A DNA stretch of 64,000 bases from Candidatus Harrisonbacteria bacterium (lineage in GTDB: Bacteria; Patescibacteriota; Minisyncoccia; UBA6257; 1-14-0-10-44-23). The DNA lies in NCBI GenBank assembly GCA_023255625.1, contig JAHFLF010000001.1, positions 290,965-354,964 on the forward strand, given 5' to 3'. Below, one piece after another: positions 1-64,000 of the stretch. The notes under the pieces were generated by a model that was not told where the DNA came from, made no database searches, and saw only the letters and a list, made by a program, of their open reading frames with translations. How positions within the stretch are numbered: position 1 is the first letter of the stretch; every line of letters begins with the position of its first letter. The position numbers and the translations under genes are program-made.

Positions 1-185
1 CCATCGCCGCCGATGATCTTCTGAACGAAGTCTCTGCGATCGACCGTACTCTCACCATGCTCACGAGTAAGATCGGGTCGAGTGACGTAGTGCATATGGG
101 TTTGCATCTCAGCGACCCATTGACCATCAGGGACGACCACGGGCTCGGGACGCAAACGACTACGAATCTCGAAAACCTTGGACAT
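1..185 (-). CDS. hypothetical protein, 5' portion only; the ORF runs off the window edge
   Basis: Minus-strand ORF with ATG at 185..183 preceded by AGAGGTGG SD (rc of 186-200). It lies in a GC-rich block. No recognisable motif. Confidence 0.45.
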   Translation of the reverse strand, partial: MSKVFEIRSRLRPEPVVVPDGQWVAEMQTHMHYVTRPDLTREHGESTVDRRDFVQKIIGGD

Positions 186-304
186 CTGCCACCTCTTTGC
201 GGTAAAAAGTGAATTAGCAAACCTACCGCCAGCCTGCCAATTCCGGAACAGTTTACGTGCCGGAGATGAAAGAAAAAATCTACCATCTTCGATACATAAA
301 TTTG

Positions 305-338
305 TTGTTCGGCCGAGACCCCTGAGGGTCCCGGCCGA
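305..338. terminator. GC-rich hairpin GTTCGGCCGAGACC-CCTGAG-GGTCCCGGCCGAAC downstream of the minus-strand ORF ending at 346
   Basis: Near-perfect inverted repeat seen directly in the sequence. A related hairpin containing CCCGGCCGAACG recurs at 1250-1283. Confidence 0.4.
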
Positions 339-345
339 ACGTGCA

Positions 346-771
346 TCATCGAACTGCGTCTGCTAGGAAGCTGGCCACCTTGTGGCGGTCCCAGTCCCCC
401 ATCGCCCGCAGCTTCTGCTCGAGCTCGCCGCACTTCCCAGGCGCGGCGCGTTCCAGAGACATCGCGATGAGAGTCGCGACGATGATCCCATCGAGCTCGT
501 CGGCGCGCCTGGAGTCGAACATGAGCGCGACGAGCGAGTCGTGATCGAGCGAATTCGAGATCCTAGTGACACAGAGACGGGCGTTGCTTGAGAAGAACAT
601 CTGGTTCGCCTCGCAGAACCAGAATGCCCGGTCGTCCTCCTCACTGATCCGACCGATGTCGTGGTAGACACCGTCCCTCTCGGTGAAGGCGATCCGTACC
701 GCTGCCACCGACGGAACCTGCGGGAAGCAGGCGTAGAGACAGAAGCTCATCTGCTCCGGTGAGTCACTCAT
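346..771 (-). CDS. hypothetical protein (about 141 aa) in GC-rich island
   Basis: ATG at 771..769 preceded by GGAGGTGAGCCG. The start overlaps the upstream gene's stop as ATGA (translational coupling). No known motif. Confidence 0.55.
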   Translation of the reverse strand: MSDSPEQMSFCLYACFPQVPSVAAVRIAFTERDGVYHDIGRISEEDDRAFWFCEANQMFFSSNARLCVTRISNSLDHDSLVALMFDSRRADELDGIIVATLIAMSLERAAPGKCGELEQKLRAMGDWDRHKVASFLADAVR

Positions 772-974
772 CGGCTCACCTCCTCCGGCCGCTTCTCCAT
801 GTAGAGAATCGCCAGCGCGTGGAGCTTGTCGTAGAGTTCGCCGCCGACGCTGCTCGTGCAGTTCACGACGGTGATGCCGGAGCCCATCTTCTCCAGCCAC
901 CCGTTGACCTCGGCTTCGAGGTCAACGGGATTCCCACCCTTCCCCATCCAGTCGTAGAACACCCTGATCTTCAT
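768..974 (-). CDS. small hypothetical protein (68 aa, MKIRVFYDWMGKGGNPVDLEAEVNGWLEKMG...)
   Basis: ATG at 974..972 preceded by AGGAG. Its TGA stop overlaps the ATG of the downstream gene. Confidence 0.5.
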   Translation of the reverse strand: MKIRVFYDWMGKGGNPVDLEAEVNGWLEKMGSGITVVNCTSSVGGELYDKLHALAILYMEKRPEEVSR

Positions 975-1249
975 CGTACATCTCCTGTCAGTTGTGGCCG
1001 CCTTCTGGGGTCGGCCACTCCTACTCCTCGGTTGTGTGGTTGCCCACACTCCGAAGTTGAGGAGCGTACGCTGCGGGCACCATGCCCGGTCCGTCATCGT
1101 CGTGTGGTTGTAGTCTTAGGGCCCGAAGGCCCTATCTACATAAGCTCCACTTCATTTCGCACCCCCTTTCTGTATGAAAAGTGCGTTTCCCTAATATATC
1201 ACAAAATATATATTTGTCAATATTTTAAAAAATAAGATAGCAAAATCGA

Positions 1250-1283
1250 ACGGCCGGACCCTTGTGGGGGCCCGGCCGAACGC
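1250..1283. terminator. imperfect GC hairpin CGGCCGGACCC-TTGT-GGGGGCCCGGCCG after the minus-strand gene ending at 1296
   Basis: Inverted repeat. It shares the CCCGGCCGAACG 3' arm with the hairpin at 305-338. Confidence 0.35.
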
Positions 1284-1295
1284 TGTTGTCGCCTG

Positions 1296-2306
1296 TCACG
1301 CGGCGACGAGGTCTTGCGGCTTGATCCTCCAGCCGTGACGCAGGAGGAACTTCCGGACAAGGAAACGACCGCGGTGCTGCACGGCCGAACCGTATCCGGC
1401 GTATCTGTGCTCGCGCATCATCTGCCAGAGCTTCTGGTGATGCGACACGAGCCGAGGATCGGAGAAGATCTTGCGAATCCACTCCTTGTCCCCCGCTGCC
1501 GCAGGCTCCTCGATGTCCATCATCTGCAGGAGGATGTCAGCAGATCTGGCGTAGTTGCCCTTCAGGACCGGCTCGATGGCCAGCTCCCTGTCAGTGCGCC
1601 AGTTAGAGTCGCTCACCTGCTGGCGGATGAGCACGGCGGGCTTGATACCGTACTTCTCTCGCCAAGACTTGATATAGCCGGCGAGTGTCCGGCCCATGAT
1701 GCCAGCTCCCCGCTCGAGAGTGCCGATGCACTGCCCAACGATGTACCGACCTTCGGATTCCATCGTCTCCGGATTGCTGCCCATGCCCTCGCCCGCCTTG
1801 TAGCCATTCTCCTTGAGAATGTCGGCGAGCCTCTTGGACATCCACTCGCCCTCGCAGGCCTCCGGGAGCATCCCGAGCCAGGTGATCACGGCGTTGAGAC
1901 TCTGCATCGGAACCCGAATGGTCCCGAGTGCCTCACGCCGCTGCCGCTCGAACCTCTTCTTCCACCGACGATTCCGCCGGTGGAAACGCTTCAGCGCCAG
2001 CTCACGCTCCGGCGACATGTACGACCGCGCCGCCTGAACCTCCTCGGAAGCCTCCTCCCAGGGAGTATCCGGATCCGCAGACCTCGCCGCATCGACGAGA
2101 TCCTCGGCCGCCTGCTCGCGCCGTTCGCGGAGGTAGTGCCTCCACTCCAGCGTCGGCAGGTGGTCACTCGGACCCACCTCGAAGACCTTCCACCGGACCG
2201 TACGGCCCCGGCGCATGGCCTCGACCTTCATGGCCCGCAGCACCTCGCGGTTGCTCGGCCACTCGCCCTCGAACGCCTCGTCGTGAAGATCCTTGTACAT
2301 CAGCAT
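1296..2306 (-). CDS. hypothetical protein (336 aa), GC-rich island
   Basis: Long ORF. ATG at 2306 is preceded by GGAGGAGCTACG. The antisense ORF 1314..2414 has no SD. Function not recognised. Confidence 0.55.
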   Translation of the reverse strand: MLMYKDLHDEAFEGEWPSNREVLRAMKVEAMRRGRTVRWKVFEVGPSDHLPTLEWRHYLRERREQAAEDLVDAARSADPDTPWEEASEEVQAARSYMSPERELALKRFHRRNRRWKKRFERQRREALGTIRVPMQSLNAVITWLGMLPEACEGEWMSKRLADILKENGYKAGEGMGSNPETMESEGRYIVGQCIGTLERGAGIMGRTLAGYIKSWREKYGIKPAVLIRQQVSDSNWRTDRELAIEPVLKGNYARSADILLQMMDIEEPAAAGDKEWIRKIFSDPRLVSHHQKLWQMMREHRYAGYGSAVQHRGRFLVRKFLLRHGWRIKPQDLVAA

Positions 2307-2562
2307 CGTAGCTCCTCCATGGTTGTTGCCATGTTCCTCGGTGTAGCGAACTACACCGAAGCGAGGAACATACGAACCCAGGGCGACATGCCCCGGAATT
2401 GTTCATCGGTGTAGAGTTGAGAGGTATTACATCTCAGCTCAACCCACCGGCAGCGGAACCATTCCGCATAGCCACTTCATGCCGCCTCCTTTCTCCGTTT
2501 ATTTGGCGGTAAAATATATTATAGCATAATTTATATAGATATGTCAAGCATTTCTATGTATT

Positions 2563-2619
2563 AGTGTACTAGTACACTGTAACAGGAGAAAGGGCTATTC
2601 AGCAGCGTACTAGTACATG
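2563..2619. promoter_or_regulatory. two trp-operator-like palindromes: AGTGTACTAGTACACT (2563-2578) and GCGTACTAGTACATG (2604-2619)
   Basis: Perfect 16-bp and near-perfect palindromes built on a GTACTAGTAC core, the same core as the E. coli TrpR operator half-sites. They sit at the junction of the GC-rich block and the AT-rich backbone. Confidence 0.4.
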
Positions 2620-2644
2620 AATACATGGCAGATTTTAGACCGCG

Positions 2645-3136: not shown

Positions 3137-3598
3137 ATGAACCTAACGAATGAATACATTAGAGGACTTATAGACGGTGAGGGCTGCTTTTCTTTTTGTA
3201 CAAGCAGTTTCGTAGTAAGAAATGAGACTCTCTACCGCGGAAAGGTACCTGCATTCCAAATTTCAATGCATGTTAGAGACAAGGATCTTATTGAAGGAGT
3301 GCGGGATCATCTTGGCCTGAAAAATAAAGTCTATGTTTATAAATCTTCACAAAAAGATGGAATAAAAAGAGGAGATAAGGCAACCCTAATAGTCAGGAAG
3401 GCTTGTGACCTGAGAATGATAATAGTTCCATTTTTCTATGGTAAATTGCGCGGTCACAAGGGAAAGCAATTCAAGGAGTGGCTAGAAAAAATTGGATCAG
3501 ATGAAAGAGTTGGTGAAAAATTCAAAATTATCCATAGACTCTATAAATGCGGATATTGGGAGAAAATCCAGAATATACCGGAAAAATTCAGGAGTTAA
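3137..3598 (+). CDS. LAGLIDADG-family homing endonuclease (single-motif type)
   Basis: N-terminal YIRGLIDGEGCF is a textbook LAGLIDADG motif. 153 aa, basic C-terminus. Confidence 0.7.
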   Translation: MNLTNEYIRGLIDGEGCFSFCTSSFVVRNETLYRGKVPAFQISMHVRDKDLIEGVRDHLGLKNKVYVYKSSQKDGIKRGDKATLIVRKACDLRMIIVPFFYGKLRGHKGKQFKEWLEKIGSDERVGEKFKIIHRLYKCGYWEKIQNIPEKFRS

Positions 3599-3724: not shown

Positions 3725-4086
3725 ATATGGAATTCCTGTTCAAATCAAAAACGATGTTTGCCAGAATGTTTCACACTCTTTTAGAGTATTTTGCAAATCC
3801 CCGTTCAGAACAATTGTTTCGCATCTTTTAAACATTTTTTGCAAGTGTAAAACATCCTGTAAAACAAAACCTGCCCGCCTTTGGAGGGAATGTTTTACGC
3901 TTGTGTTTTACAAAAAATTAGCGTGAAACAACGAATATCCGGCAAAATAATGCGGCAATCCGGCAATTGCCTTATTTTTTGCCGTATTACAAAATTCACA
4001 AAATTATCTTATACCCATATTGGCTTGCTGATCAACATTGCCGCCGTATATACCATCAGATGAAGCATGCTCGCTTGACTATCATG

Positions 4087-4104
4087 CAGCGTACTAGTAC
4101 GCTG
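4087..4104. promoter_or_regulatory. 18-bp perfect palindrome CAGCGTACTAGTACGCTG upstream of the TrpR-like gene
   Basis: Perfect palindrome with GTACTAGTAC core, about 50 bp upstream of the start at 4158. Confidence 0.5.
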
Positions 4105-4157
4105 GTACATAGAGACGGTGTCTTTGAGTAATCAATATTAGTAACCAATAAAATAAT

Positions 4158-4442
4158 ATGAATAACCAATACAAAGAAGAGTTAGTAGAACTGCTGCGCA
4201 CTGCAGCTAAAGACGCGAAACTGTTTGAGGCGGTGCTACGCGACATACTCACGCCGTCTGAATATAGAGAAATTGCTAATAGGTGGCAGATAGTTAAAAA
4301 ACTCGCGATGGGAGAGGACCAGCGCGCGATTGCCCAGGATCTTAAGGTTGGTATCACGACCGTCACTCGCGGCGTCCATGTGCTAGAAAACTCGGGCGGG
4401 GGATTCAACCAAATGCTTAGTAAACTCGTCGCACGAAAATAG
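4158..4442 (+). CDS. TrpR/YerC-YecD family (Trp-repressor-like) DNA-binding protein
   Basis: 94 aa. LTPSEYREIANRWQIVKKLAMGEDQRAIAQDLKVGITTVTRG matches the YerC/TrpR-like HTH family. Confidence 0.6.
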   Translation: MNNQYKEELVELLRTAAKDAKLFEAVLRDILTPSEYREIANRWQIVKKLAMGEDQRAIAQDLKVGITTVTRGVHVLENSGGGFNQMLSKLVARK

Positions 4443-4476
4443 CGCCGCTACCCTTCGGCTCATATGACCACTTGAC

Positions 4477-4510
4477 TATGTTACAGTGTACTAGTACACT
4501 GTAACATAGC
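4477..4510. promoter_or_regulatory. 34-bp perfect palindrome CTATGTTACAGTGTACTAGTACACTGTAACATAG downstream of the TrpR-like gene
   Basis: Perfect palindrome centred on GTACTAGTAC. Could be an operator, a bidirectional hairpin, or a recombination site. Confidence 0.5.
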
Positions 4511-4728: not shown

Positions 4729-5427
4729 ATGCCGAATATTACGCCTGTCGATACCGAGCGATTGCTTAGACCCATCACTTCGGAACGTGAGCGGCTCGAG
4801 CGATCAATTTCGAAGTCTCTGCCGTTTGAGCTCTGGGTCACTGGGATTCTGATGCTCATGTTACTCGGCGTACACGTTTTCTGGCCCGCAGACAAACTGG
4901 ATGCACCAATCGTCGCCCCTGCTGTCGAGTCGCAACAGACCGTCCCAGATTTGGAGACGACGACCCAGGCCAGTCATGAGGTGTGCCGGCAGATTCTGCC
5001 AGAGACGATGCTCGAGGCGGCGATAGAGCCCCAGGAAGAACGAACCTACCTCGTCACCTTCAAGACCAAGAAGAACAGCAATTGGACCGACTTCGGGGCG
5101 ACCAGAGAGACCAAGGAGGTGGATGAGGCGACATACAACAAGCACAAGATCGGGCAGGAGGTTAGCAGAAAGCCCGTCGCCTTCAGCTTCCGTGACTACT
5201 ATGCCGTGACCGTCGTGGAGAAGCAGATCAAGCGGAAGTTCTTCTGGATCGACCGAATGGAGAAGCGTCTGCAGGTTGGCGAGCGTGAGTTCCAAGCCGT
5301 TCTTGCAGAATTACAGTCTTGTGGCCGGGCGCCTAAGTTGCCTGTCGCTGCAGGCAAGATTCATTCCTATACCGTGGAGAAGCCGCTCGCTGAAACCGAA
5401 GGAAGCAACTCCAGAGGTGACAAATGA
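4729..5427 (+). CDS. hypothetical protein with N-terminal transmembrane segment (232 aa), GC-rich island
   Basis: ATG preceded by GGATGGAGGTG. Hydrophobic stretch near the N-terminus. Confidence 0.55.
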   Translation: MPNITPVDTERLLRPITSERERLERSISKSLPFELWVTGILMLMLLGVHVFWPADKLDAPIVAPAVESQQTVPDLETTTQASHEVCRQILPETMLEAAIEPQEERTYLVTFKTKKNSNWTDFGATRETKEVDEATYNKHKIGQEVSRKPVAFSFRDYYAVTVVEKQIKRKFFWIDRMEKRLQVGEREFQAVLAELQSCGRAPKLPVAAGKIHSYTVEKPLAETEGSNSRGDK

Positions 5428-5660
5428 AGAAGTTCCTGAAGTACTTCCTGCTCGCGCTCGTAGCTTCTGCGGTGGCGTACACCGTTCGGGCTGAAGAGCT
5501 CGACTGGAATTGGCAGTTCAAGGTCGTGATGTTCGATCGCATCAGGCCAGGGTCACTGGACCCAAGCTGGTGTGGCTGGACTCACATGGCCGTCTGGAAT
5601 CTCTTCATCGCTTGGTGGTACTACACCTACGAATGGAAGAGGCCCCATCGGTTGTGGTGA
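5424..5660 (+). CDS. small secreted/membrane protein (78 aa), Trp-rich
   Basis: ATG overlaps the upstream stop (ATGA). Preceded by AGAGGTGA. Signal-like N-terminus. Confidence 0.5.
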   Translation: MKKFLKYFLLALVASAVAYTVRAEELDWNWQFKVVMFDRIRPGSLDPSWCGWTHMAVWNLFIAWWYYTYEWKRPHRLW

Positions 5661-5698
5661 TGGAGTTTTAATCAACGGACCGCAAAGAGGTGCTAAAC

Positions 5699-6844
5699 AT
5701 GGATATCAAGCAGGTAATGAAGAGGCATGCGTACCAGAACATGCCGCTCGGATACGATGCTGCGTACGAGTTGGGCATGTTGGCACTGCGTGGGTGTGCC
5801 GGAGACCCACTCGCACAGATCCAGAGCATCGTTGCGCTCTCTGCACTGCACACGCGTGCGACCTATCACGCGGCGGATGACGCCGCCGCGGAACAGATCG
5901 CCGGTGTCTGCGCTACCGTCTTTGATCACGACATCGCGACCTCTACGCTCGGCTTCATCGAGCCGGTCGGGGATGTGATGGACAACTGCGGGATGGGTGG
6001 GGACCTGGTTGTGACGGCGAATGTCTCGACCTTGGCCGCACTGATCGCCGCTGCTGGCGGAATCCGAATGTGCAAGCACGGATCGCCAGCGAATGCCGAC
6101 GGTGGTCGACACGGCAGCTCTGACTTCATCGATCTACTGGGCATAGAACGCTGCCCAGAGGTGGGAATGGTCGAACGCTGCGTCGATGAACTCGGCTTCG
6201 GCTACAGCGAGGCATTGGATACACGCTACAAGCGAATCCACTGCCAGACACACGAGGTAGCGCAACTGCCGCACATGAATGACATCATCGGCCCGGTCAC
6301 CAACCCGGTCCGTCCGACCAAGCTGAAGAGGCGCGTACTCGGCATCAACCACCTTATCCCGCCACGGGTGGTCGCCAAGGCGTTCAGAATTCTCAACACT
6401 CGCGGTATCACCGTGGTCACGCATGGATTGTTCGTTCGCGGATTCACCGATGACAGAACGAGCGCATCCGGCATGGACGAGGTTTCAATCTGTCAGGCCG
6501 GCACTCTTGTCGCTGAACTGAAGGATGGAGAGATCACGGAATACTGGCTGACCGCTGAAGACTTCGGTCTGAAGTCGGTCGCAAGCGCCGCAATCTCGCC
6601 GGCGTCGGGCATGTCAAAGGGGGAATTCTCAATGCGCATCTTGTGCGGCGAGATACAGGGACCCCCGCTGCAAATGGTTCTTGCCAATGCAGCGCTCTTG
6701 TTCAAACTGAACGACCCTGCGCTCACTTACCCGGAGGCGTATCAACGGGCAGAACAGATTCACCGCGACAAGCTCGACCAGAACATCGCCACAGAAGTGG
6801 CTCGGCTCATCCCGAGTCAGAAGGGAGCAATGTGTCTCAACTGA
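5699..6844 (+). CDS. glycosyl transferase family 3 protein, anthranilate phosphoribosyltransferase (TrpD)-like
   Basis: MDNCGMGGD...KHGSPANADGGRHGSSDFIDLLGI resembles the TrpD GTGGD/KHGNR region. ATG at 5699 preceded by AGAGGTG. Substrate unknown. Confidence 0.5.
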   Translation: MDIKQVMKRHAYQNMPLGYDAAYELGMLALRGCAGDPLAQIQSIVALSALHTRATYHAADDAAAEQIAGVCATVFDHDIATSTLGFIEPVGDVMDNCGMGGDLVVTANVSTLAALIAAAGGIRMCKHGSPANADGGRHGSSDFIDLLGIERCPEVGMVERCVDELGFGYSEALDTRYKRIHCQTHEVAQLPHMNDIIGPVTNPVRPTKLKRRVLGINHLIPPRVVAKAFRILNTRGITVVTHGLFVRGFTDDRTSASGMDEVSICQAGTLVAELKDGEITEYWLTAEDFGLKSVASAAISPASGMSKGEFSMRILCGEIQGPPLQMVLANAALLFKLNDPALTYPEAYQRAEQIHRDKLDQNIATEVARLIPSQKGAMCLN

Positions 6845-7668
6845 CGAAGAAAAATGTGGGCATCATGATCGACTACGACGGGGTCGTCGTGTTGCAAACA
6901 ACGCAGCGGCCCACCTGTGACCCCAAGGCGATGTTCGAGCGACTCGCCCGAGCAGGGGTGATCATCATCCCGAACTCTGACACGCCAGTGGATCGTCTCA
7001 TGAGAAACTTCGAGGAAGCTACCGGCATCAAGCCAGCGCACCTCGTCGCAGAGCGCGGAGCAGTAGTCGTGAGCGAAAAAAAGCGCCACTACTACAAGCC
7101 CCAAGGCGACTTGTTCAAGCAGTACCGCAGTGCAATACAAGAAGCGCTGACCAGGGCCGGCATCGAAGTACTCATCAATGATGCGGCGAACTGGGTGCGC
7201 GATGTCCGTACGCATACACCCAACAGTCGCATGGCAATTCTCGACGGCATGCGCGAACTAAGCTTTTGCGCCTTCTTCCGGAGGACTGACGAATCCGGAG
7301 GGCCGTACATCGACCACGAATTCATGCAGGACTGCCTGCACGTCATCGACACCGTGGAGCCGCCAGTCGAGATCGAGAGGCAGACGGACAAATGTTTCGG
7401 GATCATGATCGGTAGCATTCCCGGAGTGAGCAAGACTACCGGTTTCCGGATTCTGCGTGATCTCTTCCGTGAGCCAATGCAGTGGTACATGATTGGAGAC
7501 GGCGAGGGCGACCTGATCGACGCAGATGAAGTAACGCATTGCGCGGTCGGCAATGCACAAGACGCACTGATCCACCGATGCGCGTTCCGAGCAAAACATT
7601 CGTACACCGACGGATTGCTCGAATGCCTCGACTGGATCAGCGCAAAGGAGAATCTATCAGAGCACTAG
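6832..7668 (+). CDS. HAD-superfamily hydrolase (Cof-like)
   Basis: IMIDYDGVVV (HAD motif I DxDG) and MIGDGEGD near the C-terminus. Likely GTG start at 6832 after AAGGGAG. Overlaps the end of the upstream gene. Confidence 0.55.
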   Translation: MSQLTKKNVGIMIDYDGVVVLQTTQRPTCDPKAMFERLARAGVIIIPNSDTPVDRLMRNFEEATGIKPAHLVAERGAVVVSEKKRHYYKPQGDLFKQYRSAIQEALTRAGIEVLINDAANWVRDVRTHTPNSRMAILDGMRELSFCAFFRRTDESGGPYIDHEFMQDCLHVIDTVEPPVEIERQTDKCFGIMIGSIPGVSKTTGFRILRDLFREPMQWYMIGDGEGDLIDADEVTHCAVGNAQDALIHRCAFRAKHSYTDGLLECLDWISAKENLSEH

Positions 7669-8383: not shown

Positions 8384-9197
8384 GCTGGCGAAATTTTCGC
8401 AAATATTCGGAGGAAAAAATAACATAGTTATCGGAGCTATTCATCTTCCTCCTCTCTTAGGTTACGCAGATTACCCAGGTATAAAAGTCGCACTTAAGAA
8501 TGCATTAGCTGACCTGCGGGCATTCGAAAAAGGCGGTGTTCATGGGATTATTTTTGAAAACAATTACGATATACCTCATAAAGAAAAAGTCAGCCCTGGC
8601 ACAATCGCTGGGCTGATGTATGTCGGATCGGTGCTTCGCAAAAAAACAAAATTACCGCTAGGAGTTAGCGTCTTATGGAATGATTACGAGTCGGCATTGG
8701 CCATAGCAAAAACTTTAGATCTCCAGTTTATCCGTATCCCGGTATTTATTGATACCGTGAAGACTAATATTGGTATTATTCAGGGTAAGCCGGAAAAAGT
8801 GATTGCCCTGAAACAAAAAATAGCGGCCGCGAAAATAATGCTTTTTACTGATATTCATGTTAAACATTCAAAGGTCATTTCAAAAATGAACCTGGAAGAA
8901 TCAGCGCAAGCGGCTATGAGCAATGGGTCGGACGCAATCATTGTCACAGGTGCTTGGACAGGGCAGAGTCCGGATATCGCAACATTAGAAAAATTAAGAA
9001 CTAGAATAAAAAAATTCCCGCTGCTTGTCGGCAGCGGATTTAGCGCTCAGAATGCACGCACACTGATGCGCCATGCCACTGGGGCGATAGTCAGTACTGC
9101 TCTTAAAAATGGGCATTCAAAAGCTAATGAACAAAATGTCAAAAGTTATAATCAAAGAATATCATTGGAAAAGGTCAAACAGCTCTTTACTTTATAG
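8373..9197 (+). CDS. BtpA/SgcQ family TIM-barrel protein
   Basis: N-terminal IGAIHLPPLLGY resembles the BtpA family VIGMVHLLPLPG motif. Overlaps the upstream gene by 11 nt. Confidence 0.5.
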   Translation: MKDKLAKFSQIFGGKNNIVIGAIHLPPLLGYADYPGIKVALKNALADLRAFEKGGVHGIIFENNYDIPHKEKVSPGTIAGLMYVGSVLRKKTKLPLGVSVLWNDYESALAIAKTLDLQFIRIPVFIDTVKTNIGIIQGKPEKVIALKQKIAAAKIMLFTDIHVKHSKVISKMNLEESAQAAMSNGSDAIIVTGAWTGQSPDIATLEKLRTRIKKFPLLVGSGFSAQNARTLMRHATGAIVSTALKNGHSKANEQNVKSYNQRISLEKVKQLFTL

Positions 9198-9326
9198 CAG
9201 TCATATGCTATAGTTTTTTTGTTATGAAATTCCAGCCGACCCACAATTTATTTAGTAGTTATTACTACGCCGCATATATAACCACCCGGGTGCGGTAATC
9301 TTTCGTTCTATCCAATAAGTTCTACC

Positions 9327-9352
9327 AACCGCCCCCGAGCGGTTTTTTTGTT
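9327..9352 (+). terminator. rho-independent terminator ACCGCCCCCGAGCGGT followed by a T-tract
   Basis: Stem-loop followed by TTTTTTTGTTTTT. Confidence 0.5.
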
Positions 9353-9499
9353 TTTCGCACCAGCGAAAAACAACCCTGCGTAGCTTGTAGAGCGAAGCAC
9401 GGGTCAGCATTTTCTCGGGGAAAATTGTCCGCACAAGCGTCTTGAATGAAACCCTCATTCACTTGCGCGGACTGGCTCTTTGAGAAAGGAATAGCGAGT

Positions 9500-9706
9500 A
9501 TGCCGCCGTACATGGGGAGTATCGATGGGTCGACTAACGGCGAGCTGCCAAGGCGTTGCTCGCACTGGCCGACTTCTGAGGGTCGTGTCCCGTGCAACAA
9601 CTGCAACGCCTCGATCGGTTGCGGGCAGCCGCACTTCAAATGGCAGTGCGCGGAGTGCAAGCAATGGTTCTGCGTCAGGCCCGACCAATTTGGTCGGGAC
9701 GGGTAG
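9500..9706 (+). CDS. small Cys-rich protein (CNNC...C...CAEC), possible zinc ribbon
   Basis: ORF in GC-rich block. Start uncertain (ATG at 9446 or 9500). Several CxxC pairs. Confidence 0.35.
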   Translation: MPPYMGSIDGSTNGELPRRCSHWPTSEGRVPCNNCNASIGCGQPHFKWQCAECKQWFCVRPDQFGRDG

Positions 9707-9784
9707 TGCGCAAGCCGGCGCGAGCTTCAGGGAGCGTTCGCTCCCGCTCGCGCCGGCCAGAGTTCTTTCCGAGAAGGAGATGCG

Positions 9785-10273
9785 ATGTCGAAAGAGACGC
9801 TGACTCACCAGTTGTTCGCGTTGCAGTGCGGCATGGTCTTGAGGGACTACGACAACCCGATCGAGGACTCCAAGCGGCAGGAGATCAACGTCTCCGATGC
9901 CATCGCTCCGGAAGACCTCGGGTGCGGGATCTTCTTCGAGTTCCCCGGGATGACAGACGAACACGCCCCGAAGGCACTCCGCGGCCAGCAGTTCCTGGCG
10001 GTGGCAGTGCTCGAAAAAGACCGCGTGTTTGTGTCGACGGTCATCGATCCCGACACTCATCGCGAGAAGGGACTCAAGCTCGCAGCCCTGATGTTCGGCC
10101 GGTTCACTCGTCCGTCGGCCGCAAGGCTGGCGAACCCGGACAGCATCTGGCAGTGGGCGGCTCGATCCTCTCGGGCCAGCCTCGACGGCTACGAGAGCGC
10201 CGAGGTGATCGCTCGCGAGACGCCGTGCCACTGCGGGCGCATGCATGCCCCGGCGAACTGCTGGGCGACCTAG
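9785..10273 (+). CDS. hypothetical protein (162 aa)
   Basis: ATG preceded by AAGGAGATGCG. Overlapping ORFs in other frames lack an SD. Confidence 0.5.
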   Translation: MSKETLTHQLFALQCGMVLRDYDNPIEDSKRQEINVSDAIAPEDLGCGIFFEFPGMTDEHAPKALRGQQFLAVAVLEKDRVFVSTVIDPDTHREKGLKLAALMFGRFTRPSAARLANPDSIWQWAARSSRASLDGYESAEVIARETPCHCGRMHAPANCWAT

Positions 10274-10276
10274 CAG

Positions 10277-10843
10277 ATGCACGACACCCTCGGCATCATC
10301 GCTGGCATCCTGACGCTCGCTGGGTTTATCCCGGCGGGCGTCGGGGCAGTACGCGGACCAGTTCGCCCAAGCAGAGCGACTTGGCTCATTTGGGCGGTGG
10401 AGGCCATCTTGATCTACAAGACCTTCGCCGCCGCAACTCCAGACTCAAGCGCTCTCTGGATCCCGCTTGGATTTACCGTTGGAGCCGCAGGGATGTTTCT
10501 CCTGTCTGTTCCGTTCGGTGAAGGCGGGTGGAGCACGCTCGACAAGTGGTGTCTGGCAGGCGCAGGTGCCACGATCATCTTCTGGCACCTCGTTGGACCT
10601 GTCGCTGGACTGCTCGCCGGTATCGCCACCGACATGATCGGAGCGGTGCCGACGGCGGTCAAGACATGGAGAGATCCGAAGAGCGAGAGTCGTGCGCAGT
10701 GGTTGCTTTGGTGGCTCGGTGCCATCTTCAACCTCTGTGCGATCAAGAACTGGCAATCCGTGGAGGCGGCGTATCCGCTTTACGGATTTGTTCTGACAAC
10801 CACGATGGCCGGCGTGATTGCCGGCAGAAGGAATGGTGTCTGA
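10277..10843 (+). CDS. multi-pass membrane protein, paralog of the 46542..47126 product
   Basis: Shares TWLIWA..., K(T/S)W(R/Q)DP(K/W)SE and NLC(A/S) motifs with the AT-rich paralog. Confidence 0.5.
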   Translation: MHDTLGIIAGILTLAGFIPAGVGAVRGPVRPSRATWLIWAVEAILIYKTFAAATPDSSALWIPLGFTVGAAGMFLLSVPFGEGGWSTLDKWCLAGAGATIIFWHLVGPVAGLLAGIATDMIGAVPTAVKTWRDPKSESRAQWLLWWLGAIFNLCAIKNWQSVEAAYPLYGFVLTTTMAGVIAGRRNGV

Positions 10844-11238
10844 TGCCGCCGTATCTGAGAGAGCTTCCGACGTGGTATGGAGATCCGCCGCCGCGTTGTC
10901 AGCACCCCCACCAAAAGCCATCACGTTCGCGTTGCTCATCGTGTGGCTATCCGGGCATCGAGTTCGTCTGTTCGAAGTGCGAAGAGAAGGTCAAATTCGT
11001 ACCAGACGAGCGACGCAAAGAACGCAAGAGTCCTCCAAAGGGCAAATGCGTCTATGAGCACAAAAGCGCCTGTCGCCATGACGGGAAGCTCTATCCGGAT
11101 CGGTGCTTCCATTGCGAGTGCGTGACGATGAAGTACAAGTGCACCACATCTAAAACCTTCATCGAGTCCTCTCGTGGTTCGCCCAACGTCGAGAGGGAAC
11201 CGGGGAAAGGCGAGTTTTCGGGAGCTGAGAGTTATTAG
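10843..11238 (+). CDS. Cys-rich protein (131 aa) with several CxxC motifs
   Basis: ATG overlaps the upstream stop (TGATG). CSSC, CSKC and CFHCEC motifs. Confidence 0.45.
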   Translation: MPPYLRELPTWYGDPPPRCQHPHQKPSRSRCSSCGYPGIEFVCSKCEEKVKFVPDERRKERKSPPKGKCVYEHKSACRHDGKLYPDRCFHCECVTMKYKCTTSKTFIESSRGSPNVEREPGKGEFSGAESY

Positions 11239-11337
11239 CCGGAGGTGTAAGACTCCGGCAAGCAACGCGGCGGCATCGACCCACAAGGTTGATGACCGCC
11301 GCGCTTCATTTTTCAATATTAAAAAACAACAATTTTG

Positions 11338-11409
11338 TGGGCGGTGCAGGGAATGATCCTGCGGCCTACTGCGTGTAAAGCAGTCGCTCTACCACTGAGC
11401 TAACCGCCC
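11338..11409 (-). tRNA. tRNA-Val (anticodon TAC)
   Basis: Cloverleaf read from rc: GGGCGGT acceptor, GCTCAGTGGTAGAGC D-arm, anticodon loop TTTACAC, T-loop. It sits at the right border of a GC-rich block. Confidence 0.8.
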
Positions 11410-16981: not shown

Positions 16982-16984
16982 TTC

Positions 16985-17100
16985 TTATTCTCCCTTTGTA
17001 AAAGGGAGGGGACCGCAGTAGCGGTGAGGGATTTAGTTCCGCCCCCTAGTTTAAATCCCTCCCGGCTACTGCCGTACTCCCTTTAGGAAAGGGAGAATAA
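16985..17100. repeat. inverted pair of REP/MITE-like elements
   Basis: TTATTCTCCCTTTGTAAAAGGGAG-GGGACCGCAGTAGCGGTG-AGGGATTT followed by its inverted counterpart AAATCCCTCCCGGCTACTGCCGTACTCCCTTTAGGAAAGGGAGAATAA. Confidence 0.8.
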
Positions 17101-17106
17101 ATGTTT

Positions 17107-17138
17107 CAGGGCCGGTTTGCTTTCGCAAACCGGCCCTG
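17107..17138. terminator. perfect hairpin CAGGGCCGGTTTGC-TTTC-GCAAACCGGCCCTG
   Basis: Perfect 14-bp stem at the border of a GC-rich block. Confidence 0.45.
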
Positions 17139-17275
17139 ATGCGTGCGGATCTGCCTTGCCTTGCCGTAGCTTTAGCGAAGGCAGGTTCCCGCGTGGCTCA
17201 CAACTACGCATGTGACGCGTCACCACTTTTGGCCTCTAGGCCCCGCGCAAGTGACGCGCGTTGAAAACGCATCTG

Positions 17276-17667
17276 CTACTGAAAACCGTCCAGCTCGAAA
17301 CGGACAGGCTCCACGGTGGTGCGCAGCCCAAGCGCCTTCTCGACCGTCGTTCTCTCAGCATCCTCGAGAAAGAGGCGCCCGTGCTTCAACTGCCTGCACT
17401 CGGAAGTGTCAGATCTCCTGTAGGCCACCACTGAGTACCATCCCTGACTCCGAACCTCCACCGTGAAAGGGGCGAAGGACGGAGAAACCCAGAAACATGT
17501 GAATGGGGAGTCGAGACCCGACACTGAGTCGGGAATGATCACCCACTCGTCTTTCCCGTTGGGAGCGACAAAGGGATTGAGCTGCTCCAGGGCGGCCCTG
17601 ACCGCCTCCATCTGCTTCTGATCCAATCCCTCGAACCTCAGCCTCTTCCCGATCATCACTGACATGC
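17276..17667 (-). CDS. hypothetical protein (about 130 aa) in small GC-rich island
   Basis: ATG at 17667 preceded by AAGGAGGACGC. Confidence 0.5.
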
Positions 17668-20335: not shown

Positions 20336-20346
20336 TGAATAGAATT

Positions 20347-46540: not shown

Positions 46541-46541
46541 C

Positions 46542-48202: not shown

Positions 48203-48301
48203 ACCCGTGAGTGTATATTCTTTTCGTCAAAAACAAAACCGCTCGTCCACAACCTTGGTAGATCGGGACGAGCGGGTACTGCTTCGTTCATGGGGCGGGA
48301 A

Positions 48302-49864: not shown

Positions 49865-50617
49865 ATGAAAAAAATAACTAAAACCATAGCCGGATTATCG
49901 GCTCGCCAGACAGAGGTTTATTGTGTTTTATTAAAACTAGGAAAGGGGACTGTTGCCGAGGTCATGCGCGAGGCAAAGATGAACCGCACAACCGGTTACA
50001 GTGTTTTAGATTCACTGGTTGGCAAAGGGCTCGTGACGATTTCAGGGAAGGAGCCAAAGCAGGAATATGTCGCTGAATCACCAGACAATTTACTCAAGTA
50101 TCTGAATCATGAGGCAGAGGAGGCGCAGGCGCGAGCCAAAGAAGTTGAAAATCTAATTCCAGAATTAAAATCTATCCACAATGTTGCCGGCCGGCCAAAG
50201 GTGATGTTTTATGAGGGCGAGGAGGGGCTGGAGCGCGTTTATGAAGACACGCTGACCTCGCATGAGCCAATTCGGGCGTATGCCAATTTTGAGGATGCAA
50301 CAAAAACACTGCCTCACTACTTTCCGGAGTATTTCCGACGCCGTGCAGAGAAAAGAATTTCAATCCGCGGCATCGTGCCCGACAACCTTGCGGGCCGCCA
50401 AAATGCAGAGCGCAACCGGGAAGAATTGCGCGAAATGGCACTTGTGCCGACAAATAAATATTATTTCTCTCCAGAAATCAACATCTACGACGACAAAATC
50501 ATGATCGCTTCATGGAAGGAAAAACTTGGTATCATTATCCAAAGCAAAGAAATCGCTGATGCGATGAAATCTATCTTTGAGCTCGCCTGGGCAGAAGCTA
50601 AGCGTCTATCTCGCTAA
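49865..50617 (+). CDS. TrmB-family transcriptional regulator (paralog 4)
   Basis: wHTH (QTEVYCVLLKLGKGTVAEVMREAKMNRTTGYSVLDSL) and TrmB C-domain. Confidence 0.6.
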   Translation: MKKITKTIAGLSARQTEVYCVLLKLGKGTVAEVMREAKMNRTTGYSVLDSLVGKGLVTISGKEPKQEYVAESPDNLLKYLNHEAEEAQARAKEVENLIPELKSIHNVAGRPKVMFYEGEEGLERVYEDTLTSHEPIRAYANFEDATKTLPHYFPEYFRRRAEKRISIRGIVPDNLAGRQNAERNREELREMALVPTNKYYFSPEINIYDDKIMIASWKEKLGIIIQSKEIADAMKSIFELAWAEAKRLSR

Positions 50618-61189: not shown

Positions 61190-61996
61190 TCAAAGTTGGG
61201 ATTTGAGTTCGCGGTCTGGCGTTGAGATCTGCCAGAGGGCTTCAAAATAGTTGCGGTGGGCGGCGGCGATGTCGACACTTTCGATGATCAGACCGAACAT
61301 TTCGGCCTTGGAGGAGAGAATCATCACCTTGTTACCATAAACAAATGTAGTGGTGGCAAAATCCATGCCGTCCGGAGAAATGCGCATGTCACGCAGGTTG
61401 CCGGCGCTGCTCGGATAGGTACCGGGTGAGCGACTGACGCTCGGATGAATCACGCGCAGGTGGATTCCTTTTTTGACGCGCTTCTCAACCGCGCGATCAA
61501 CGTAATCCCGACCGAGCACCTCCCACGTTGCTTTGGCGGAAAAAATCCCAAACAACTGTTTGTCCGGCGTGGTGAGCGAATCCTCATACGCTGTTTTATA
61601 ACCCTCAATGCCTGGGTAAAATAAAATCTTTGGTTTAAATTCAGTTCGTCCGTTAAATACTTCCAGTTGCGGGATTAATTCGTCTAATTCAATTTCTTGC
61701 TCACGCAATAATTTTTTAAGCATTTTTGGCGGCTGCGCCACGTAGATGTGCCGTTTGCCATCCATAGAAATACTCACTAAACCTTTGGCGATAAGCGCGT
61801 GAATCGCGTCATAGGCATTTGTCCGACCCAACTTTGCCTGAGCGGCAACTTTTTGCAGGGGAGCAGGACCGGTTTTCAAAGCAGCAATATACAGCCGTGA
61901 CTGCTTGTGGGTCAGACCGTACTTTTGCAGTGACTCCTCGAAGTCGCCTGATTTGTATACTTTTTTCATACAATCTAATATACCATATTTGAACAT
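61190..61996 (-). CDS. TrmB-family transcriptional regulator (paralog 5)
   Basis: wHTH (QSRLYIAALKTGPAPLQKVAAQAKLGRTNAYDAIHAL) and TrmB C-domain. Confidence 0.6.
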   Translation of the reverse strand: MFKYGILDCMKKVYKSGDFEESLQKYGLTHKQSRLYIAALKTGPAPLQKVAAQAKLGRTNAYDAIHALIAKGLVSISMDGKRHIYVAQPPKMLKKLLREQEIELDELIPQLEVFNGRTEFKPKILFYPGIEGYKTAYEDSLTTPDKQLFGIFSAKATWEVLGRDYVDRAVEKRVKKGIHLRVIHPSVSRSPGTYPSSAGNLRDMRISPDGMDFATTTFVYGNKVMILSSKAEMFGLIIESVDIAAAHRNYFEALWQISTPDRELKSQL

Positions 61997-62112
61997 AAAA
62001 TTACAAGATTTGTACTAAAATATACAACTTTTTCAGTCTTTTTTTGACATATCTTGCCAAGTTAGTAAAGTTGTGTTGTTCTCGCAATTTCGCGGAACGA
62101 ACGGGGGGCGTC

Positions 62113-62796
62113 ATGGGAAATGCGTTCTTTGAAGAGTATCGTGCCTTTGAGAACGAGCTGGTTGAGCGTTTCAACCTGCATCCGTTCTTCGTCTCGTTCG
62201 GCTCGCTCCCGAACGAGGCGGTCATGGCGGCCCTTCTCCAGCTTGGTTTCATCTCGCTGGAGTTCGTCCGCTGGTACGAGCGGGCGAAACTCGGAATGAC
62301 CTCCGAGGAGGCAAAGGAGCTCATCCGCTGCATCCTGCGCGACGAGATCCCGAGTCGACTGCCGACGCACCAGGACGATCGGCTCGCTGACCTCTTGGCC
62401 ATGGGAGCGGCCAAGGAGCGAGTGCTGAACGAACCGGCGAGTGAGCGGACAGTGCAAACTGTTCGGACGCTCTACGAGCTCGTTCGCTATCCGCAGGAGT
62501 CATATGACCTGCGGGTGCTGGTATATCTCCGTATCTTCGGAGAGATACTGGTTGCGGAAACCTATGGACATGTAGTGCGGTCCATGGGGGAACGTTTCGG
62601 ATTGCAACCGGAGTGTTCGCGGTTCTACGAGCCGCACTACCGGCACGACGACAAAGACGAGGGAGGCCACAGCGTGAAGTTCGAAAGGGAGCTCGAAAAG
62701 CTCATCACGGACGAACACATGTTGGCGCTTGCCAAGTCCGCATCGGAGGCCGCCTTTACGGATCGCTACAAATTCTACGACCAGTTCGTGGAATAG
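62113..62796 (+). CDS. hypothetical protein (227 aa) in GC-rich island
   Basis: ATG at 62113 after GGGGGGCGTC. Followed by GC hairpin 62885-62925. Confidence 0.45.
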   Translation: MGNAFFEEYRAFENELVERFNLHPFFVSFGSLPNEAVMAALLQLGFISLEFVRWYERAKLGMTSEEAKELIRCILRDEIPSRLPTHQDDRLADLLAMGAAKERVLNEPASERTVQTVRTLYELVRYPQESYDLRVLVYLRIFGEILVAETYGHVVRSMGERFGLQPECSRFYEPHYRHDDKDEGGHSVKFERELEKLITDEHMLALAKSASEAAFTDRYKFYDQFVE

Positions 62797-62977
62797 CTAC
62801 ATCACCTGAAGCGTGTCACATACGCTGCGGCTAGAGCCGCGAAAGTTGTGAGCGTCACCTGGCAGTGGTGAGCCCTCGGGAAGCAGAGCCCGAAACGCAC
62901 GCGCCCCGGGCAGGAATGTCCGGGGCGCAGTGATTTTTACAACTTATTAAGTTAACTCTAGAATCCTATCTACGATA

Positions 62978-63400
62978 TCAAATTCCTGATTCTAAATTTT
63001 TTACGTCTCTCTCGACTTCTTCGCGAATCTTTTTTGCCAACTGAGCAGAAATCTCAGCTATTTTCCCATTTGCAACTTGCCGAACAGCCTGTGCTAGTTG
63101 AGCAAAATCATCAACGGTGTAGCCAGGATAATACCCTTGAACGGTTGGGTCCATATCCTTGGCGCCCTCGAAATCCTTGATAAGACCTGTCATTGCACTT
63201 TTGAACCTGTTGAGGTTGCCGCTATATCTCTGTCCCTCTTTTTGAAGATCCTCCGTCATAGCTGCTTCAAGATAATGAGCGTTGCCCTGCAGTATCTTGT
63301 CAGCTTGTTTATGTATATCTATTGGCGTAATAACTTGTTCCTGAGCGCCCCCCCCAGCAGGTGCTTGCTTCACTTTGAATGCGTCATCTTCAATGCCCAT
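62978..63400 (-). CDS. hypothetical protein (140 aa)
   Basis: ORF only. Confidence 0.4.
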   Translation of the reverse strand: MGIEDDAFKVKQAPAGGGAQEQVITPIDIHKQADKILQGNAHYLEAAMTEDLQKEGQRYSGNLNRFKSAMTGLIKDFEGAKDMDPTVQGYYPGYTVDDFAQLAQAVRQVANGKIAEISAQLAKKIREEVERDVKNLESGI

Positions 63401-63414
63401 ATTTTAATGAATTA

Positions 63415-64000
63415 TTAATTAATCTTATTAAACAACTTTAAACGGGCCAGTGCAACTGCTTTGACGTCAACGAAGGCGGGTTTAAGCAGATTATATGGTG
63501 CGACTTCGCTTGGCAGATCATGCAATCCTTTTTCGATACCGGTGCGCAAGGCTCGCCGCAATTCGGTTGAAATGTGAATAATGCTGACGCCGACATCAAT
63601 CGCTTTTAAAAATTCTTCGTCTGGGGTGCCGCTGCCGCCATGCAATACCAGCGGCACTTTGGCGGCGCGCCGAATTTCCTTGATACGCTTAATGAAAAGA
63701 TGTTTCGTGAAGGTTCCCGAATCTTTGAACATCCCGTGCACATTGCCGACGGCGGGCGCAAGCATATCAACCCCCGTAAGCTCCACGAACTGAGCGGCCT
63801 GCTCGGGCTTCGTAATAGTATCCTCAGTAATCTCCACGCCATCCGGCAGCTTATCGTGCACCTGCGAACCGGCCCCGATAAAGCCAATCTCGCCCTCTAT
63901 TAATACCTTCTTGTTTTTGCTGGCGCGGGCATACTGGACAATTTCTCGAACCATCGCAACATTGTCCGCAAAAGGCTTATCTGCCTCATCAATAATCACT
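63415..64000 (-). CDS. fba: class II fructose-bisphosphate aldolase, C-terminal part only; the gene continues beyond the window
   Basis: The LVLHGGSGTPDEEFLKAIDVGVSIIHISTELR and MLAPAVGNVHGMFK motifs are typical of class II FBA. Confidence 0.75.
   Translation of the reverse strand, partial: VIIDEADKPFADNVAMVREIVQYARASKNKKVLIEGEIGFIGAGSQVHDKLPDGVEITEDTITKPEQAAQFVELTGVDMLAPAVGNVHGMFKDSGTFTKHLFIKRIKEIRRAAKVPLVLHGGSGTPDEEFLKAIDVGVSIIHISTELRRALRTGIEKGLHDLPSEVAPYNLLKPAFVDVKAVALARLKLFNKIN

Follow-up and report, generated by a model that had tools for sequence, protein, structure and literature searches.

A mosaic of GC-rich, Shine-Dalgarno-led gene blocks, probably exchangeable accessory cassettes, in a small Parcubacteria genome

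Bacteria of the candidate phyla radiation (CPR) make up a large share of bacterial diversity, and how their minimal genomes gain functions is poorly understood. Replacement-type flexible genomic islands carry variable cargo between conserved flanks and are swapped by homologous recombination. Integron arrays and clusters of attC sites lacking an integron-integrase (CALINs) consist of small, co-oriented genes, mostly open reading frames (ORFs) without recognizable relatives (ORFans), with deviant composition and hairpin-forming spacers, behind a conserved 5' platform of intI, attI and Pc. Here we analyse a 64,000-nt stretch (hereafter the window) of contig JAHFLF010000001.1, chromosomal DNA of a small, Colwellbacteria-like Parcubacteria (CPR) genome, in which GC-rich gene blocks led by Shine-Dalgarno (SD) sequences lie in a backbone whose genes start largely without them. 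Streamlined Patescibacteria genomes contain compositionally deviant islands amounting to up to 13% of their length, with transfer inferred mostly among Patescibacteria themselves (mSystems 2025, PMC12455944). Furthermore, Tsurumaki et al. (RNA 2022, PMC9297842) detected the anti-SD motif in only 48% of Parcubacteria, a subgroup having lost it.

The window resembles the genomes described in PMC12455944 in that compositionally deviant islands sit in a streamlined CPR genome and appear to be exchanged within the group. However, they occupy about 25% of the window, can be as small as one peptide gene, exceed the host in GC and are SD-led in a host that lacks the anti-SD, and at least one slot is conserved across sister genomes; a text search of that paper found no mention of Shine-Dalgarno. 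Like integrons and CALINs, the window's arrays are small, co-oriented and mostly ORFan, with their own SDs and hairpin spacers, and in one of them (island 7) variable cargo follows a conserved 5' platform. Unlike in those systems, neither IntI nor an attC family was detected in the window, wherever a promoter was identified the unit has its own promoter plus a terminator, and the island-7 platform consists of a TrmB-family regulator and a leader of ~700 nt that appears to be structured. As in replacement-type islands, flanks and regulators are kept and cargo differs between relatives (islands 1-3, 4, 7 and 8). Yet the usual islands of that type (glycosylation and O-antigen loci) are large and have host-like translation signals, whereas the cargo here keeps foreign GC and SDs. 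Horizontal gene transfer and islands in Patescibacteria (PMC12455944) and the loss of the anti-SD were thus already known; new is the systematic coupling of islands with anti-SD loss, together with their non-amelioration and their regulator-guarded slots.

Gene-order comparisons indicate that the blocks occupy variable slots of an otherwise conserved gene order. We consider it probable, though well short of certain, that they are accessory expression cassettes from a flexible pool circulating among related Parcubacteria, gained or replaced at conserved slots and operating under host regulators. The nine blocks are as follows.

1..2450, minus strand: island 1, a co-oriented ORFan operon, GC ~0.60
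4729..7668, plus strand: island 2, four genes, GC 0.56-0.59
9186..11312, plus strand: island 3, a mobile expression cassette running from promoter to terminator
17101..17956, minus strand: island 4, one SD-led ORFan (17276..17665, 129 aa)
21540..21790, plus strand: island 5, a mini-cassette with the SD ACGGAGGTGG, a 53-aa membrane peptide gene (21571..21732; GC at third codon positions, GC3, 0.93) and a GC hairpin
30178..30522, plus strand: island 6, a mini-cassette with promoter TTGACT-17-TATGAT, an SD, a 65-aa ORF (30266..30463) and a GC-hairpin terminator
36595..40430, plus strand: island 7, SD-led co-oriented genes, GC 0.51-0.73 by ORF
47135..49669, minus strand: island 8, mildly GC-rich (0.52-0.575)
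62113..62796, plus strand: island 9, whose single gene encodes a haem-oxygenase-like iron redox protein, GC 0.57, GC3 0.72

A preliminary description, made from the sequence alone, had proposed GC-rich, SD-rich insertions in an AT-rich backbone. Sliding-window GC delimited seven larger blocks (1-2450, 4750-7700, 9400-11300, 17000-17750, 36450-40350, 47350-49550 and 62100-62950) and two small ones (21500-21800 and 30200-30550). Pooled GC was 0.58 in the islands (0.52-0.73 in single islands) and 0.46 in the backbone, which is therefore not very AT-rich. Tetranucleotide usage of the islands correlated with that of the backbone at 0.15-0.67, compared with 0.76-0.92 for backbone chunks, and most islands correlated better with one another than with the backbone; islands 7 and 8 did so equally with both. 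Within each block, one frame displayed GC3 > GC1 > GC2 with GC3 of 0.6-0.93, a pattern typical of coding sequence from GC-rich genomes, and this identified the real reading frames. GC, GC3, tetranucleotides and SD counts thus agree with the proposed blocks and set the islands apart from the backbone, island 8 being enriched in GC only mildly.

In a motif scan (GGAG or GAGG at -18 to -4 from the start), 17 of 22 island genes had an SD, compared with 2 of 33 backbone genes (Fisher 5e-8). As the islands' own background frequency of the motif is only 0.167 (binomial p 7e-10), the enrichment is not a mere by-product of GC content. Strong SDs had been claimed for all blocks, which holds for most of them: the first gene of island 8 has none, and none was found for island 9 by the scripted scan, although GGAGG can be seen by eye before the ATG at 62113. 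In 80 loci from relatives, SD use was 7% overall and 31% in GC-outlier genes (Fisher 5e-7; crude gene calls). The blocks are also accompanied by GC-hairpin terminators and strong sigma-70-like promoters, the latter found for islands 1, 2, 3 and 7 and for the mini-cassette at 30266. A further candidate for a mark of island heads, TGCTATAGT, was discarded; it also precedes a backbone ABC-F gene and thus represents an ordinary extended -10 promoter.

Junctions between islands and backbone recur in independent records. Logan contigs from SRR14366769 were 100% identical across the backbone/island-1 junctions, a contig of ENA assembly ERZ27297344 matched 28302-40899, spanning islands 6 and 7, with one mismatch, and the window sequence is also present in ENA ERZ27296333 (182,625 bp) and in an NCBI contig of 601,890 bp. 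Proteins of islands and backbone share the same three to five contigs. The concern that the contig might be a chimera is thereby answered by Logan, two ENA assemblies and NCBI records alike.

The best species-representative match of the window's RecA (69% identical) is Candidatus Colwellbacteria, followed by other Parcubacteria, none of these genomes being near enough for a comparison of gene order. The named relative of one island protein, a 72%-identical homolog, carries the NCBI label Candidatus Colwellbacteria. The window contains the host's gene for the small-subunit rRNA.

27274..29184, minus strand: 16S rRNA gene, 1911 nt, with insertions

In the Infernal alignment to RF00177, the gene has the 3' tail GGAUCAAUUAAACU, in contrast to the bacterial consensus GGAUCACCUCCUUu. 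The tail does not contain CCUCC, so the host has no anti-SD at the canonical place, and the start of core genes behind AT-rich, SD-less leaders is in keeping with that loss. By both features, the window appears to belong to the subgroup with lost anti-SD reported in PMC9297842. Two features found here are not in that report, namely the minority of SD-led, GC-rich accessory genes and an orphan GGAUCCUCCUU hairpin past the 16S end. The orphan motif, at 27150-27140 on the minus strand and 124 nt beyond the 16S 3' end, is the sole exact copy in the window; it closely resembles the canonical 16S 3' terminus and is paired with GGAGG in a UUCG-loop hairpin within the trailer of the 16S gene. The motif may be left over from the lost anti-SD or may have a function. 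An excised intervening sequence before it was rejected as an explanation, as no closed stem forms from the 137 nt that separate GGAUCA from GGAUCCUCCUU. The gene exceeds the bacterial model by ~380 nt; 16S insertions are known as a CPR trait. One of its insertions (e.g., 28818-28978) is a 68-nt inverted repeat of AATTTCT/ATTGAAA-type short repeats, which similarly occur at 57519-57625.

Evidence for movement is most direct for island 3. It starts with a promoter (9186-9214) and a leader that contains an intrinsic terminator (9327-9344 plus T-run); three genes follow at 9785..10273, 10277..10843 and ~10850..11238, and then a terminal GC hairpin (11266-11312), which ends 25 nt from the 3' end of a tRNA gene.

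11337..11409, minus strand: tRNA-Val(UAC)

In GCA_964641225.1 (loci L170/L171), a copy of the middle gene at 88% nucleotide identity lies in a neighborhood unrelated to that of the window, and the left end (9256-9358) and the right-end hairpin are likewise conserved, at 88% and 100% identity. The other two cargo genes differ from those of island 3, yet they too are GC-rich and SD-led, and the surrounding backbone has a GC of 0.40-0.48 and no SDs. Two further homologs of the membrane protein encoded by the middle gene occur in other contexts, making three in all: a 72%-identical copy lies between IS110 transposases in a Colwellbacteria metagenome-assembled genome (L167), and a 65%-identical copy lies between genes for a penicillin-binding protein and tyrosyl-tRNA synthetase in a CPR-like contig (L168). 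Both have an AAGGAG SD on the gene and none on its neighbors, and a gene GC of only 0.49. With conserved ends and middle gene in an unrelated context, island 3 is a mobile cassette, and the L170/L171 copy directly documents the transfer of such a promoter-to-terminator unit from one genome to another. At positions 1-9400 of L170, the neighbors of the island-3-like cassette include a large serine recombinase and a Hachiman defense module (HamA plus helicase), suggesting that larger mobile or defense islands can serve as vehicles for cassettes of this kind. The island-3 membrane gene had also been paired with a backbone paralog at 46542-47126; the relationship is real but distant (28% identity, E 1e-12).

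Islands 1 to 3 share a region whose frame is conserved. The order FtsH, tRNA-Ile(UAU), tRNA-Val(UAC) ... LAGLIDADG/YraN ... NusA is retained in relatives with 62-68% FtsH identity; within it, FtsH and the two tRNA genes form a conserved synteny anchor. In these syntenic relatives, no homolog of any island 1-3 gene was found, and the corresponding intervals hold other lineage-specific genes. From tRNA-Val to a TrpR-like gene, the distance is ~1.2 kb in locus L098 and 6.9 kb in the window, where the interval contains islands 3 and 2 plus PfkB and BtpA genes. The missing genes and the far shorter interval in L098 place islands 1-3 in variable slots. Island 1 (genes 1296..2306, 336 aa; 768..974; 346..771; and a 254-aa gene left of the window) extends ~650 bp beyond the window's left edge and is followed there by NusA (L082). 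It has a perfect TTGACA-18-TATAAT promoter (2547-2518, minus strand; 12/12 sigma-70) and a GC-hairpin terminator at 1278-1251. Island 2 encodes a 232-aa membrane ORFan, a 78-aa secreted peptide, a TrpD-like phosphoribosyltransferase (5699..6844) and a HAD-like protein (~6832..7668), and low-GC PfkB-like and BtpA genes follow downstream. Beside these islands, a 30-nt inverted repeat (97% complementary) flanks a LAGLIDADG endonuclease gene (3137..3598; element 3107-3723) on both sides. As the same YraN-like gene neighbors it in L088, L090 and L091, this endonuclease gene is taken to be free-standing and vertically kept rather than intronic.

Across three genomes, the slot of island 7 is conserved, with turnover of its cargo. 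Both sister loci, L085 (JGI contig, 633,618 bp) and L169 (GCA_040384425.1), have a co-oriented, SD-led block with a GC of 0.56-0.70 at the same position after a TrmB regulator. The order in L169 is GNAT protein, TrmB regulator and block, followed by Fic, DUF2238 and ribonucleotide reductase. Of the island-7 genes (36595..37326, 37724..38212, 38545..38865, 39157..39375, 39387..39770 and ~39851..40137), the first encodes a protein 54% identical to its counterpart in L169 and 46% to that in L085, and the last is kept in L169 only, at 69% identity. Flanking backbone proteins are 49-90% identical to those of the sisters. The inner genes are ORFans, unrelated in each of the three genomes, but GC-richness and SDs are retained. 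Given the common locus and a divergence of the end genes similar to that of most backbone genes, island 7 is old and has not ameliorated. Its lowest-GC ORFs encode 98 aa (38991..39287; 0.505) and 102 aa (39829..40137; 0.511). A 33-nt leader repeat (39116-39148 and 39788-39820; 88% identical) with SD-like GGGGAG/GGAGGAG precedes two successive small genes, which hints at duplicated or modular cassette heads. Other small GC-rich blocks occur in the sisters, e.g., at 2712-3065 of L085 (GC3 0.83, GGAG upstream), and genes of a GC-rich block at 1-2500 of L169 have at most weak GGAAG-type motifs. The GC mosaic is a trait of the clade.

Upstream of island 7 lie two further conserved features.

33303..34100, minus strand: TrmB-family regulator gene, in the sisters directly divergent from the island-7 leader promoter
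35380..36594, plus strand: promoter and predicted structured leader RNA, ~700 nt to the ATG of the first island-7 gene

The leader promoter (TTGACA-17-TATAGT, 35380-35413) is conserved, and leader copies were found in L085 (7245-8000), L169 (6240-7024) and, in part, L083 (1-396). Leader nucleotide identity is 83-93% between genomes with ~50% protein identity, and the first island-7 gene is preceded by an SD and 130 nt of sequence that are ~90% conserved. RNAalifold predicted 180 pairs from three sequences, 33 of them with changes on both sides; shuffles gave 14.2 (0 of 500 reached 33) and slid partners 2-5, and the partial fourth copy (L083) showed further compensatory changes by eye. No match to Rfam 15 was obtained (E up to 5 for the window copy and up to 1 for the uninterrupted copies of L085 and L169). 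Based on these three or four sequences, the leader is a candidate large structured RNA. The window copy is interrupted by a GIY-YIG element (35830-36213) and two hairpins resembling repetitive extragenic palindromic (REP) elements, apparently in loops. The GIY-YIG gene (35914..36168) is flanked by inverted ACCCAGCACTAACTT repeats and replaces ~60 nt of conserved leader.

For the remaining islands the comparative record is thinner. Island 4 has a GC-hairpin terminator at 17139-17106 and is bracketed by a perfect 48-nt direct repeat of a REP-like element (17053-17100 and 17909-17956). A homolog of its divergent TrmB regulator in L173 is paired with a different divergent ORF preceded by a SD-like GAGGT motif; this ORF was read by eye rather than called as a gene, and the contig ends after 98 nt. 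Both mini-cassettes described earlier have a plausible SD and hairpin terminator and are called genes in public assemblies, and the one at 30178..30522 is identical in a second assembly. In island 8, an SD precedes the gene for a radical-SAM protein (48302..49669) but not that for a secreted, Cys/His-rich protein of 355 aa (47135..48202); the island is absent between tRNA-His and VTT in L169. The comparison with sister genomes thus revealed empty or differently filled sites for islands 1-3 and 8, while island 7 is present at the same locus in the sisters.

Several islands adjoin genes for host regulators. In E. coli, the trp operator has the core GTACTAGTT.AACTAGTAC, and a similar arrangement surrounds islands 1 and 2.

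2554..2625: two GTACTAGTAC palindromes, immediately preceding the island-1 promoter
4079..4109: GTACTAGTAC palindrome, upstream of the TrpR-like gene
4158..4442, plus strand: putative TrpR-family repressor gene (PF01371 hit), of backbone composition and without SD
4476..4506: GTACTAGTAC palindrome, overlapping a promoter-like site (4472-4500) at the head of island 2

Four CTAG-centered GTACTAGTAC palindromes compare with 0.46 expected in the window, and across 171 loci (2.3 Mb) the 10-mer occurs only in the window and in L098, where two copies flank a TrpR homolog (49% identical to the window's) and one overlaps a promoter. As with E. coli TrpR, perfect palindromes lie on either side of a TrpR-like gene and overlap or adjoin promoters, and one putatively regulated block, island 2, holds a TrpD-like gene. 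Unlike it, the window protein scores 49 bits against TIGR01321 (E 5.7e-13), below the curated equivalog cutoff of 67 bits, and the putative targets are ORFan islands and no trp operon. The palindromes had been regarded as island borders; all four copies exist, but they are better read as operators of the adjacent TrpR-like repressor and are probably not recombination sites. From their position, the TrpR-like protein would regulate islands 1 and 2.

TrmB-family regulators, of which the window has five, are found divergent beside islands 4, 7 (adjacent in the sisters), 8 and 9, and they may regulate these islands.

17961..18689, plus strand: TrmB-family regulator gene, divergent from island 4
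49865..50617: TrmB-family regulator gene, divergent from island 8
61190..61996, minus strand: TrmB-family regulator gene, divergent from island 9, assigned by paralogy to the other TrmB genes

The other features reported at island borders are likewise all present, including a tRNA gene and a family of hairpin elements.

46470-46541: tRNA-His, adjoining the membrane paralog gene and island 8
16982..17100: REP-like hairpin elements, also resembling miniature inverted-repeat transposable elements, with the core CTCCCTTTnnnAAAGGGAG plus GGGAGGGATTT

Further REP-like copies lie at 17909-17956, 35205-35263, 36293-36360 and 36390-36450, and the element's tail is present in L083. Two window-specific insertions in conserved leader loops and the 48-nt duplication around island 4 suggest that these hairpins behave as small mobile insertions. 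At islands adjoining tRNA genes, no tRNA-derived att duplication was seen.

The origin of the island genes was addressed by an exhaustive HMMER search of 1.84 billion representative proteins (from a library of ~15 billion proteins that includes the same metagenomes). The proteins of 9785..10273, 37724..38212 and 17276..17665 returned self matches only and that of 1296..2306 only two marginal matches, i.e., four of the six island proteins tested had no homolog or two marginal ones. The protein of 36595..37326 has two homologs, and the 127-aa protein of 39387..39770 belongs to a family of ~140 clusters, which is predicted to fold confidently and has no known fold relative (no match in a BFVD fold search). 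The 90% clusters of ten island proteins looked up were singletons (two-member for 10277..10843) of this species only. The relatives found were all in CPR-like contigs with AT-moderate backbone, SD-less genes and TrmB neighbors. Island proteins matched no PHROG family, no relatives were found in IMG/VR, and plasmids gave only distant TrpD matches; 50,697 phage records gave no match to the ORFan proteins, the 162-aa island-3 gene or the two mini-cassette peptides. Pfam mobility genes (integrase, transposase) were absent in and beside the window islands, with only LAGLIDADG and GIY-YIG homing endonucleases nearby, and no phage or conjugation gene was found in the 64 kb. The window and the sister loci around island 7 contain no integrase. 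A repeat search made without an attC covariance model revealed no attC-like family, only the 33-nt leader repeat (39116, 39788) and unrelated hairpins. Of the features by which genomic islands are classically recognized, the islands thus display deviant composition, absence at the syntenic position (islands 1-3, 8) and tRNA or direct-repeat flanks (islands 3, 8 and 4); mobility genes were found only near the L170 and L167 copies.

How these blocks arose can be weighed against this record. The preliminary description favored repeated, recent, small acquisitions from one high-GC, SD-using donor, for example the cell on which this episymbiont lives. The shared high GC3, SDs and hairpin terminators, the tetranucleotide usage of most islands and a host ribosome without anti-SD, which makes the SDs look like donor relics, all fit such a history. 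However, the ORFan status of most proteins tested and the lack of phage or plasmid relatives make a well-sampled high-GC donor unlikely, all relatives found are in CPR-like contigs, homologs of the island-3 membrane gene (65-72% identical) have a GC of only 0.49 in other CPR genomes, and island 7 is common to the sisters by descent or long co-residence (46-69% protein identity). The spread of island GC from 0.52 to 0.73, and the equal correlation of islands 7 and 8 with backbone and islands, also fit a single source poorly. Slots do vary and at least one block moves horizontally, so that part of the proposal stands, but a single recent donor is unlikely. Only slightly better placed, and still unlikely, is the converse view that these are native, vertically inherited, fast-evolving genes whose GC and SDs are kept by selection, e.g., on mRNA structure or for a special expression regime. 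Island 7 speaks for it, with end genes diverged like most flanking genes, a GC of 0.6-0.7 and SDs in three genomes, and a highly conserved SD and leader before its first gene, as does the pairing of islands with host regulators. It does not account for the island-3 cassette in a wholly different neighborhood at 88-100% nucleotide identity, for inner island-7 cargo that is different in each genome, for the absence of island 1-3 genes from syntenic relatives or for the perfect 48-nt direct repeat around island 4.

The small, co-oriented, mostly ORFan units with conserved terminal hairpins and shared leader repeats would also suit remnants or cargo of a classical mobile element, be it a prophage, an integrative and conjugative element or plasmid, or integron-type cassettes in a CALIN-like array; the cassette recurs beside a serine recombinase and defense island in L170, and IS110 genes flank the L167 copy. 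Yet the 64 kb lack any integrase, attC-like family, phage gene or conjugation gene, the viral and plasmid databases returned, for the proteins queried, nothing beyond the distant TrpD matches, and the units with an identified promoter carry their own, unlike integron cassettes. We therefore regard this origin as distinctly improbable. Sharp GC steps are what an assembly interleaving two organisms would produce, but the junctions are identical in four assemblies from different pipelines and samples, sister genomes have the same mosaic at the same locus, and nine interleavings with intact operons and regulators are implausible; a chimera is hardly credible.

Under the favored explanation of a flexible pool of accessory cassettes, the window carries at least nine modules in an SD-less backbone, most of them self-contained, combining GC-rich coding sequence with a GC-hairpin terminator. 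The majority of module genes have a canonical GGAGG-type SD, and the cargo consists mostly of clade-restricted ORFans. Modules would be gained or replaced by recombination at conserved flanks or by a trans-acting recombinase, the likeliest route being DNA uptake followed by homologous recombination. The composition and SDs of the pool suggest that it ultimately came from GC-richer, SD-using lineages or still passes through them. Resident modules would be wired to host regulators through TrpR-type operators (islands 1 and 2) and TrmB proteins (islands 4, 7, 8 and 9). Several points weigh against this explanation. Neither in the window islands nor next to them did the analysis find a recombinase, an att site or a transfer gene, and the donor pool has never been directly observed. 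The sister data cover islands 1-3 (absence), 7 (presence), 8 (absence, one genome) and, weakly, 4 (98 nt, L173). Regulation by TrpR and TrmB is suggested by position and co-occurrence only. Finally, horizontal transfer followed by amelioration does not explain lasting high GC and SDs in an AT-moderate host without anti-SD; their persistence calls for constant re-supply or selection.

A bolder and most unlikely reading is that the SD-led, GC-rich cassettes form a separate translational class whose SDs are under selection and are read by minority or conditional ribosomes, as a built-in switch. The candidate reader would be a 16S rRNA that keeps its 3' trailer with GGAUCCUCCUU, normally sequestered by the GGAGG hairpin partner, and the switch would act alongside the TrmB/TrpR regulators and the ~700-nt leader RNA. 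Selection on SDs is supported by the first island-7 gene, whose SD and leader are ~90% conserved when the proteins are ~50% identical. The two outcomes differ in what they would imply. If the SDs are inert donor relics, with SD-independent or scant translation, they bear on how fast translation signals decay; if a hidden SD-dependent initiation route is retained, the view of translation in these lineages changes. According to the favored explanation of a shared cassette pool, a quarter of a 64-kb stretch would consist of tiny, self-contained, foreign-style cassettes exchanged within the clade, placed at regulator-guarded slots and resisting amelioration. By-products of the analysis are the candidate large structured RNA, the 127-aa family without known fold relative and the probable TrpR operator.

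The remainder of the window encodes, among other proteins, FtsH, RecA, an ECF-type sigma factor, ribonucleotide reductase, ThyA and ribosomal protein L25, and contains seven scattered tRNA genes and one group I intron. The intron (~270 nt; RF00028, 60.9 bits) splits the anticodon loop of a tRNA gene at ~45318-45663 (minus strand), which is the ortholog of an intact tRNA-Phe(GAA) at the same place in L169; owing to the intron in its anticodon loop, ARAGORN misses this gene. The adjacent ORF 45667..46377, encoding a helix-turn-helix protein, was considered as an intron-encoded homing endonuclease and rejected, as the 5' exon of the tRNA-Phe gene starts just after the ORF, which therefore lies outside the intron.

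A second small GIY-YIG gene (20335..20613; element 20277-20811) lies between 65-nt direct repeats (95% identical) and adjoins tRNA-Arg(UCU) and a degenerate second copy of this tRNA (20745-20811). By their settings, this gene and the one in the island-7 leader appear to behave as mobile insertions. A REP-like hairpin copy (21127-21174; 90% complementary to 16988-17016) inside the NUDIX ORF 20869..21354, near residue 91, may be an in-frame insertion or a chance resemblance. Lastly, the 28-nt sequence GGGCGAGATCCCTCGGCTTCGGGATGAC occurs at 11547-11574, 25354-25381 and 50906-50933 (two perfect copies and one at 86%), one of them inside the ABC-F ORF, and a 109-nt repeat (22314-22422 and 50740-50848; 74% identical) links the noncoding regions 22200-22470 and 50620-51050. 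These repeats may represent small RNAs or another repeat family.

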